A DNA stretch of 64,000 bases from Escherichia coli (GTDB lineage Bacteria > Pseudomonadota > Gammaproteobacteria > Enterobacterales > Enterobacteriaceae): the NCBI RefSeq assembly GCF_003018255.1, contig NZ_CP027440.1. One strand, written 5' to 3'. Made by a program: the position numbers. The number at the start of each line of letters is the position of its first letter. Within the stretch, counting starts at the first letter, position 1. This document shows positions 12,001 through 15,000 of the stretch, piece by piece.

Positions 12001-15000
12001 GATTGCCAACAGGCTTGAAAATTTTGGAGGTGATAAATCATGAATGCCTGGCTTATCCCCGATCGCATTGAAGAGCAGTCATGGGCACGACACTACCGGC
12101 AAATTACCCGTGAAGAAAATGAGACTGAACTGGCGGACGACCTGGAAAAAGGTCTGCCCCAGCACCTGTTTGAATCGCTGTGCATCGATAATCTGCAACG
12201 TCATGGAGCCAGCAAAAAAGCCATTGCCCGTGCATTTGATGACGATGTCGATTTTCAGGAACGCATGGCAGAACACATCCGGTACATGGTTGAAACCATT
12301 GCCCGCCACCAGATTTATATTGATTCAGAGGTATAAACCAGATGAGTACAGCTCTCGCAACGCTGGCAGGGAAGCTGGCTGAACGTGTCGGCATGGATTC
12401 TGTCGACCCACAGGAACTGATCACCACTCTTCGCCAGACTGCATTTAAAGGTGATGCCAGCGATGCGCAGTTCATCGCATTGCTGATCGTTGCCAACCAG
12501 TACGGCCTTAATCCATGGACGAAAGAAATTTACGCCTTCCCTGATAAGCAGAACGGCATCGTTCCGGTGGTGGGCGTTGATGGCTGGTCCCGCATTATCA
12601 ACGAAAACCAGCAGTTTGATGGCATGGACTTTGAGCAGAACGATGAATCCTGTACATGTCGGATTTACCGCAAAGACCGTAATCACCCGATCTGCGTTAC
12701 CGAGTGGATGGATGAATGTCGCCGCGCACCATTCAAAACCCGCGAAGGCAGAGAAATCACGGGGCCGTGGCAGTCGCATCCCAAACGGATGTTACGGCAT
12801 AAAGCGATGATTCAGTGTGCCCGTCTGGCCTTCGGATTTGCTGGTATCTATGACAAGGATGAAGCCGAACGCATTGTCGAAAATACCGCATATACTACAG
12901 AACGTCAGCCGGAACGCGACATCACCCCGGTTAACGAAGAGACCATGTCGGAAATTAACGCCCTTCTTACTTCCATGGAAAAAACGTGGGATGACGACCT
13001 CTTGCCGCTCTGTTCTCAGATATTTCGCCGCTACATTCGGGCGTCGTCAGAACTGTCCCAGGCCGAAGCAGAGAAGGTTCTTGGATTCCTGAAACAGAAA
13101 GCCACGGAGCAGAAGGTGGCAGCATGACACCAGAAATTATCCTACAACGTACCGGGATCGACGTGAGAGGTGTCGAGCAGGGAGATTATGCATGGCAAAA
13201 ATTACGGCTCGGGGTCATCACAGCTTCAGAAGTTCACAACGTGATAGCCAAACCCCGCTCCGGAAAGAAATGGCCTGACATGAAAATGTCCTACTTCCAC
13301 ACCCTGCTGGCTGAGGTCTGCACGGGTGTGGCCCCGGAAGTTAACGCCAAAGCCCTGGCATGGGGAAAACAGTACGAGAACGACGCCAGAGCCCTGTTTG
13401 AGTTTACTTCCGGCGTGAATATTACTGAATCCCCGATCATCTATCGCGACGAAAGTATGCGTACCGCCTGCTCTCCGGATGGATTATGCAGTGACGGCAA
13501 CGGCCTTGAGCTGAAATGTCCGTTTACCTCCCGGGATTTCATGAAATTCCGGCTCGGTGGTTTCGAGGCCATAAAATCAGCTTACATGGCCCAGGTGCAA
13601 TTCAGCATGTGGGTGACTCGAAAAGATGCCTGGTACTTCGCCAACTATGACCCGCGCATGAAGCGTGAAGGCCTGCATTATGTCGTGGTCGAGCGGGATG
13701 AAAAATACATGGCTGGTTTTGACGAGATGGTGCCGGAGTTCATCGAAAAAATGGACGAAGCACTGGCTGAAATTAGTTTTGTATTTGGGGAGCAATGGCG
13801 ATAGCCGTAGCAACGAGGTGCAAATGATATGACAGTTAAGGAATGCTACCGGTGTTCGTCCTGATCCAGCGCGGGCAATCTTTCGTCGATGCCAACAACT
13901 ATCCGGTGGAAATCTGCAAGGTAACTCTTACTCAGGTGATCTACCGAAGACTCGACGGCAGAACCCGAGCCACTTCAATTGGTGCATTTAATGAAGAATT
14001 TGAGCGAGTCGACCACAACGAACTACACATGATTAAAGCGGAAATTGAGAAGGAAATGCATATTGCCAGCCTTCGAAAAATGCGACGTACATCAATCAAC
14101 TGACAACCGCCTTCGGGCGGTTTTTAATGGCAAAAATATGGATTCACACAGTATCACCCTCAAAGAGGCCTGTCAGTTTCTCAAGATATCAAGGCCAACA
14201 GCTGTTAACTGGATACGAACGGGCCGACTACAGGCAACACGAAAAAATTCTTCCGGTAAAAGATCACCTTATCTCACAACCCGGCAAGCCTGCATTGCAG
14301 CACTTCATTCACCGCTGCATACTGTCCAGGTGAGCGCGGGTGATGGCATAACAGAGGAAAGAAAATGTCACTCTTCCGCAGAGGTGAAATATGGTACGCC
14401 TCGTACTCGCTCCCGGGCGGGAAGCGAATTAAGGAGTCTCTTGGCACAAAGGACAAGCGGCAAGCTCAGGAGTTGCACGACAAGCGAAAAGCAGAACTCT
14501 GGCGAGTAGACAGACTGGGGGATATGCCAGATGTCACTTTCGAAGAAGCCTGCCTGAGATGGCTTGAGGAAAAAGCCGACAAGAAATCCATCGATTCCGA
14601 TAAATCCAGAATCGCATTCTGGATTGAGCATTTCGAGGGAATAAGGATTAAGGATATATCGGAGGCAATGATCTACTCAGTTATCAGCAAAGCGTATAAC
14701 CGAAAAACAAAGGAGAGATGGAAGTTGCAGGTGGAGGCTGCATTAAGAAAAGGGAAAGAACCACCAGCCTATATACCTAAATCGGTGAGCACGCAAACAA
14801 AAGCAACACACCTGGCAATGATCAAGGCTATTCTGCGCGCCGCAGAGCGAGACTGGAAATGGCTTGAAAAAGCACCTGTAATCAAAATACCTGCCGTAAA
14901 AAACAAACGCGTGAGATGGCTGGAAAAAGAAGAAGCCAGGAGACTCATTGATGCATGTTCTGATCCCCTGAAATCTGTAGTTAAATTTGCACTGGCAACT

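Follow-up and report, generated by a model that had tools for sequence, protein, structure and literature searches.

An 11-codon ORF upstream of a prophage DUF4222 gene is very probably the deletion scar of a lost 77-aa gene

The only characterized DUF4222 protein that we found is RgdR (ECs1581), a 99-aa protein encoded by prophage Sp7 (CP-933C, OI-51) of E. coli O157:H7 (PMC3378721, PMC10877973). RgdR activates LEE1/Ler and type III secretion, represses motility and binds DNA non-specifically (PMC3378721, PMC10877973). RgdR orthologs reportedly share >77% over 99 aa, the RGD tripeptide of the protein has been reported to be functionally important, and its prophage was described as being of partial P4 ancestry (PMC3378721, PMC10877973).

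The DUF4222 locus described here is from a stretch of 64,000 nt (the window) of Escherichia coli contig NZ_CP027440.1, to which all coordinates refer unless another sequence is named. In this part, the window represents a lambdoid Stx-type prophage, and the locus belongs to the accessory segment between exo and xis, in the pL direction. The region 13700-14250 is 100% identical to the Shigella phages POCJ13 and 75/02 Stx and to a prophage of E. coli 05-3629. In the literature on POCJ13/ynfG, nothing was found on the exo-DUF4222 locus. Upstream of it are gam (12040-12336), bet (12342-13127) and exo (13124..13804, plus strand), a 226-aa ORF of the lambda exonuclease family (WP_000187058.1 in identical DNA). 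Downstream are a xis-like gene (an HTH/excisionase-like ORF from 14138), int (a tyrosine integrase, 14365-15528) and, beyond the integrase, a truncated ynfG. In the standard lambda map, the exo-xis position is distinct from the b region. An earlier reading of this DNA, which used the sequence only (the sequence-only reading), had considered a b-region gene; gene order and the lambda map place the locus in the exo-xis region beside int instead.

Directly 3' of the DUF4222 stop is a terminator-like hairpin (14105..14125, plus strand; (AA)CCGCC-TTCG-GGCGG, then TTTTT) with a fold energy of -12.7 kcal/mol (z = -2.6). With this hairpin, the conserved module ends on its right side, and homology to 933W-like prophages stops there. 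A consensus promoter/terminator scan of 13400-14500 called no terminator, thus missing this hairpin, which was confirmed separately. The single promoter match in that region is on the minus strand and is at chance level.

The 11-codon ORF (mini-ORF) is located at 13829..13864 on the plus strand. It codes for MTVKECYRCSS, with its ATG at 13829-13831 and its TGA at 13862-13864 (ATG ACA GTT AAG GAA TGC TAC CGG TGT TCG TCC TGA), and direct reading of the window puts the preceding GAGGTG at 13815-13820. An 86-aa ORF (13843-14103) follows in another frame (13829 mod 3 = 2; 13843 mod 3 = 1). The sequence-only reading had described these three elements accurately, as confirmed by the sequence and the ORF list. 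It did not mention a two-codon ORF (ATG ATA TGA) at 13824, and it also overlooked a TAAGGA Shine-Dalgarno (SD) motif at 13837-13842 and an in-frame GTG at 13852. The duplex of GAGGT with the 16S 3' end has -7.2 kcal/mol, which is within the top ~0.6% of window positions. For the pattern GAGGT-N5-10-ATG, the window has 15 matches, as compared to 9.0 +/- 3.2 in shuffles. By itself, this SD-plus-ATG pattern is not beyond chance.

The longer ORF contains an intact DUF4222 gene of 83 aa with a GTG start (13852..14103, plus strand; MFVLIQRGQ...). This gene is already known, as it is annotated in RefSeq. On identical DNA, RefSeq/PGAP lists an 83-aa "DUF4222 domain-containing protein" (WP_000497813.1 / YP_009100224.1), which corresponds to 13852-14103. 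Pfam domain PF13973 is found with 58 bits (E = 7e-16), exceeding the gathering score of 27 bits, and residues 4-54 of the 83-aa protein align with profile positions 2-53 of 53. PHROG 285 (a phage protein of unknown function) matches with E = 5e-35, residues 4-86 of the 86-aa ORF being aligned to positions 1-82 of 83.

To compare the N-termini of homologs, 1.84 billion cluster representatives were searched exhaustively. Residue 1 aligns to residue 1 in 17 of the 18 homologs, with identities down to 36% and several in the range of 36-50% (the query's own cluster being excluded). The 83-aa length and the MFVLIQRGQ start are shared by 11 of the 14 longest close-homolog clusters, the other three having 94-114 aa. 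Across DUF4222 homologs, the N-terminus reads MF.LIQRGQ, with M1 and F2 being nearly invariant. When DNA was compared, GTG 13852 was invariant in all 10 haplotypes, as was the sequence MFVLIQRGQSFV at the DUF4222 start. The first 12 residues are constant among the relatives that carry the deletion described below (deletion-type). Homologs thus show that the long ORF is complete and has its own start, GTG 13852, contrary to the view that it is part of a frameshifted gene.

The SD motif TAAGGA (13837..13842, plus strand) lies 9 nt upstream of GTG 13852 and has an anti-SD duplex energy of -6.1 kcal/mol. AAGGA is kept in every deletion-type haplotype and in the 933W-like locus, while phiSTEC1589 has CAGGAA. 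Judged by these sequence features, DUF4222 appears to be translated from GTG 13852 with its own TAAGGA SD. The segment upstream of the GTG (13843..13851, plus strand) is an in-frame ATG plus two codons (MLP) and is sub-lineage-specific. It is unlikely that the 86-aa form is made from ATG 13843, be it instead of or alongside translation from GTG 13852. This ATG is in frame, and ATG initiates more strongly than GTG does. It also occurs in four of the seven deletion-type sequences, which represent two haplotypes (the window and L002; L005 and L007; L numbers designate the compared loci). However, TAAGGA abuts ATG 13843 with zero spacing, and GAGGT is 23 nt distant. In addition, six of the 10 haplotypes (L006, L008, L009, L003, L004, L011) have ATT, ATA or GTA in its place, and all 11 near-full-length close-homolog clusters have 83 aa rather than 86 aa. 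ATG 13843 is probably not a real start, and the 86-aa ATG-start call should give way to the 83-aa GTG-start call in the annotation.

The origin of the mini-ORF becomes apparent when the window is compared to phiSTEC1589-Stx1c and E. coli ST866, which have the undeleted gene order: exo, a gene for a 77-aa protein, and DUF4222. The flanks are nearly identical to those in the window, the differences amounting to 1/300 for exo and to 1-2/252 for DUF4222. The 77-aa protein (PHROG 1001/29320; XYH49056.1 in phiSTEC1589-Stx1c, WP_021351637.1 in 933W-like prophages) has no Pfam match. In related Stx phages, where xis and int come after DUF4222, its gene ends with ...GTGTTCGTCCTGA, hence the two genes share 13 nt, from the DUF4222 GTG to the 77-aa stop. 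The window is devoid of a full-length 77-aa CDS and has only its SD and its last 11 codons. The mini-ORF aligns with the C-terminal tail ...RVYDMAHQEYNQCSS in phiSTEC1589 and with the tail ...RVYDMALKEYNQCSS of the 933W-like 77-aa gene, each followed by the stop codon. In the 933W-like prophage of E. coli SJ2D, homology to the window starts at ~13824, and the 13-nt overlap between the 77-aa stop and the DUF4222 GTG is present as well.

Both sides of the deletion junction can be assigned. The exo gene is the left boundary of the scar. The adjacent segment (13805..13823, plus strand) is an intergenic leader, which includes the SD GAGGT (13815-13819) and stems from the lost 77-aa gene: CC-GTAGCAACGAGGT in the window aligns to CCAGTAACAATGAGGT in phiSTEC1589, which is the leader and SD directly 5' of the 77-aa gene. 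On the other side, ATGATATGACA... in the window aligns to ATGATATGGCA... in phiSTEC1589/ST866, which represents codons 65-68. The spacer from the exo stop to the DUF4222 GTG has 245 nt in undeleted loci. In the window, it has 47 nt, and in the deletion-type loci L008 and L009, it has 48 nt. In L004, the distance from GAGGT (1617) to GCCGT (1814) is 197 nt, matching the spacer difference (245 vs 48). Since the candidate breakpoints are 197 nt apart and the spacer difference agrees with this, a single 197-nt deletion explains the junction, which the flank alignments place at ~13820-13823. What is missing from the window (~197 nt) comprises the former start and about the first 64 codons of the 77-aa gene.

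We consider it very probable that the mini-ORF is a deletion scar, made up of what is left of a 77-aa gene, namely the old SD, codons M67-S77 and the stop, and that it is followed by an intact DUF4222 gene. The ~197 nt would have been lost from just past the GAGGT of the 77-aa gene to just before codon 65, possibly with G..GT microhomology at the deletion ends. This would have moved the old SD to a position 9 nt upstream of Met67, an internal codon, and would have generated an 11-codon ORF that ends at the old stop, leaving DUF4222 untouched. The exact breakpoints are ambiguous. A 198-nt in-frame deletion between ATATG repeats (1628 and 1826 in L004) was also considered but is less parsimonious, as it needs an extra 1-nt indel. 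With this alternative, the ATG of the mini-ORF would be the fused original start, and the peptide would be the same.

The sequence-only reading had favored a frameshifted remnant, with the mini-ORF and the 86-aa ORF being the halves of one split gene. The two ORFs are adjacent, they overlap in different frames, and only the first was seen to have a good SD in front. It is, however, highly improbable that they represent one gene. DUF4222 homologs start with MF.LIQRGQ and retain the 1-to-1 alignment even at 36% identity, the PHROG 285 profile begins only after the first three residues of the 86-aa ORF, and the homology of the mini-ORF is with the C-terminal end of the separate 77-aa gene. When the overlap (13840-13864) was read by eye, no slippery heptamer (X XXY YYZ) was found. 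Programmed ribosomal frameshifting was rejected as well, because such a heptamer is absent from the overlap and because homologs start at MF. Thus, the term remnant holds for the 11-codon ORF only: it is the upstream 77-aa gene that lost ~197 nt, and no single gene was split. The alignment to homologs, which had been proposed as a check, identifies the mini-ORF as the tail of the 77-aa gene, with the long ORF being separate and complete.

The deletion-type junction is found in about 75 complete E. coli genomes, including O104:H4 strains, while the intact arrangement (exo, 77-aa gene, DUF4222) occurs in eight E. coli genomes. In about 200 E. coli genomes, the 77-aa gene is in a context like that of 933W. 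A word-indexed homolog search with the 77-aa protein returned one cluster, and tblastn against phages was used instead. This showed that the 77-aa gene adjoins DUF4222 in 88 phage records. The 77-aa gene represents a real family (PHROG 1001/29320). It has also been broken independently. In Ss-VASD, it is disrupted by a 1-nt frameshift, and in O157:H7 strain 2571 it is cut by an IS3-associated truncation; DUF4222 is intact in both.

None of 5,426 E. coli genomes has an intact 77-aa allele that ends with ...DMTVKECYRCSS (tail ...MTVKECYRCSS), and every match with >90% identity among them carries the deletion. The 28-nt tail in the window shows 9/28 differences to phiSTEC1589 and 6/28 to the 933W type. 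As the tail has diverged by 9/28 despite flanks that are ~99% identical, the progenitor allele must be unsampled. The DUF4222 alleles next to the scar diverge by as much as 12% (30/252), the scar itself by just 1/28, so the scar has spread by recombination. The deletion history requires both, an unsampled progenitor allele and recombination that spread the scar.

The mini-ORF is variable among its relatives. Deletion-type peptides include MTVKECYRCSS, MTVKECYLCSF, MTVKEFYRCSS and MTIKEYYRCSF, with five peptide variants across the seven deletion-type loci. In one of these (L009, strain 2013C-3033), start and stop are gone, with the ATG changed to GTG and the stop to TTA, so that the frame continues to 32 codons. 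Within the overlap, every change of the mini-ORF leaves the encoded DUF4222 residues unaltered. With its strong SD and its ATG, the mini-ORF is probably translated, and the peptide itself appears to be without function.

As a fallback, the sequence-only reading had considered a leader peptide, for which an attenuator or a riboswitch-like element on the pL transcript might be envisaged. A gene preceded by a short ORF with a good SD fits this arrangement, yet further features expected for such an element were not encountered. RNA folding of 13800-13900 is no better than that of shuffles (z = +1.15; 171/200 shuffles fold as well), an Rfam scan of 13000-15000 (E <= 1) gave no match, and the scan of 13400-14500 revealed no terminator between the mini-ORF and DUF4222. 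Neither the peptide nor its start and stop are conserved among relatives. A leader peptide is thus unsupported, and we regard it as very improbable.

The mini-ORF might alternatively be under selection, either loading ribosomes onto the DUF4222 GTG by termination-reinitiation or tuning expression. Its geometry would fit. The SD (-7.2 kcal/mol) is 9 nt from the ATG, the stop falls 10 nt beyond GTG 13852, and the ancestral gene pair has an identical stop/start overlap. An open, startable frame exists in all seven deletion-type haplotypes (with GTG as start in L009). The deletion-type loci, however, share one deletion event, so that persistence of the frame is not independent evidence. Start codon, stop position and five of the 10 post-initiator residues vary. 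DUF4222 has its own well-spaced SD, its start is not sequestered by RNA structure (z = +1.15), and the gene is intact despite the upstream frameshift in Ss-VASD or the IS truncation in strain 2571. Selection on the mini-ORF is therefore considered unlikely. As the stop is 10 nt past the GTG, residual termination-reinitiation coupling is conceivable: ribosomes that terminate past the GTG would retain the ancestral stop/start overlap and might add some coupling. We consider such coupling unlikely. It is tempting to speculate that the deletion survived and spread only by rebuilding a translatable mini-ORF up to the ancestral stop, as a minimal coupler that DUF4222, an RgdR-type small regulator, would require for adequate expression, although this is a long shot. 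If true, the coupler would serve the DUF4222 protein of Stx1-converting phages of Shigella and E. coli. Returning to the deletion scar, where phage modules join, a short ORF with a good SD can be what is left of a deleted neighbor and should not be taken for a leader peptide or a frameshift.

An AlphaFold model of the window protein, based on an alignment of 21 sequences, has a pLDDT of 90.5. It shows short strands at 10-12, 18-24, 28-33 and 38-42 and two helices, one short (43-49) and one long and C-terminal (55-82), so that a small SH3-like beta-barrel plus a long helix is predicted. Foldseek against PDB returned SH3/Tudor/PWWP/KOW-like barrels, which are non-significant (best E = 0.015, TM about 0.5); for this model, such matches are taken to mark the fold class and not homology. 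A sequence profile search against PDB gave nothing significant (best E = 0.076). It is a reasonable guess that the window DUF4222 protein is a small accessory protein that binds nucleic acid or a regulator. RgdR regulates type III secretion, and the DUF4222 copies between exo and xis of Stx phages are candidate host regulators.

The window protein and RgdR are both small prophage proteins with a PF13973 domain (E = 2e-23 for RgdR and 7e-16 for the window protein). R7-G8 of the window protein aligns with the R-G of RGD, but its tripeptide is RGQ. Pairwise BLASTP is insignificant (E = 0.71, 9/27 identities), and the Pfam domain is all that the two have in common. RgdR has 99 aa, while the window protein has 83 aa; the rgdR gene is upstream of a primase gene, while the window gene is in a lambdoid exo-xis context. 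The window protein has neither close similarity to ECs1581 nor an RGD tripeptide.

The closest counterpart of the mini-ORF is the 77-aa gene of Stx phages. The window shares its leader, its SD, its last 11 codons and the stop that overlaps the DUF4222 start. The window copy, in contrast, lacks the start and ~codons 1-64, and its tail has diverged by 6-9 in 28 nt. As in coupled overlapping gene pairs, the upstream stop (TGA 13862-13864) overlaps the downstream start (GTG 13852), a geometry that is inherited unchanged from the intact 77-aa/DUF4222 pair. In the window, however, an 11-codon vestige takes the place of the upstream gene, DUF4222 has an SD of its own, and coupling is putative.

The accessory genes between exo and xis in lambda (orf60a/DUF1317, orf61, orf63, ea22, ea8.5) occupy the same place on the pL transcript, and most E. 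coli prophages have DUF1317 after exo, in place of the 77-aa/DUF4222 locus. This segment is highly mosaic and dispensable in lambda, as it is at the window locus. The genes are unrelated in sequence, however, and in the window phage the region has shrunk to one gene plus a scar. The locus is a case of ordinary prophage mosaic decay, with one intact gene and one scar.

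The 77-aa gene that precedes the DUF4222 gene in related phages, and of which the window retains the tail, is disrupted elsewhere as well. In Shigella phage Ss-VASD (L011, 690-966), its frame is shifted by a 1-nt deletion (ACAACAC to AC-ACAC). In E. coli O157:H7 strain 2571 (L013, 1144-1565), an IS3 transposase remnant takes the place of most of the gene, which is reduced to its last ~21 codons. These inactivations are independent events, and DUF4222 is intact in both. Annotation of the 77-aa gene is inconsistent across assemblies. Intact copies lack a PGAP annotation in O157:H7 6535NalR (L012, 401-634) and ST866 (L014, 761-994), although further assemblies whose sequence is nearly identical do have the gene annotated.

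Reading of the sequence also revealed a two-codon ORF (ATG ATA TGA; 13824-13832, + strand), which overlaps the start of the mini-ORF, the remaining tail of the 77-aa gene. It begins 4 nt downstream of the GAGGT Shine-Dalgarno motif and could compete for the ribosomes that bind there. Its counterpart in the deletion-type relative (L009, strain 2013C-3033) reads ATG ACG TGA.

An ORF of 123 aa with an HTH_17 domain (14138-14509, + strand; start MDSHSITLKEACQFLK...) precedes the integrase. In a profile search, it matched PHROG 2907 ("excisionase") over the full length (E = 1e-43), with residues 1-116 aligned to positions 2-117 of the 117 in the profile. The integrase start (14365) lies inside this ORF, giving an overlap of ~145 nt. 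PGAP calls only 14138-14203 here, as a partial HTH pseudogene, and the region is devoid of annotation in Shigella phage POCJ13.

Downstream of the integrase is a fragment of ynfG (DMSO-reductase-like Fe-S subunit; 15566-16120, + strand), the N-terminus of which is missing according to PGAP. Given this truncation and its location 3' of the integrase, ynfG is the prophage insertion site.

Upstream of gam lies an acidic ORF of 682 aa (9995-12043, + strand), of which residues 53-197 match Exonuc_VIII (PF06630; E = 5e-12). The protein is unusually large for that part of a lambdoid early-left operon.

The DUF4222 stop codon is followed immediately by a GC hairpin, the loop of which is UUCG, and then a T5 run (14105-14125, + strand). 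Folding yielded -12.7 kcal/mol (z = -2.6); the hairpin is absent from the output of the consensus terminator scan. It marks a module boundary, because the homology of 933W-like prophages to the window stops exactly at this hairpin.
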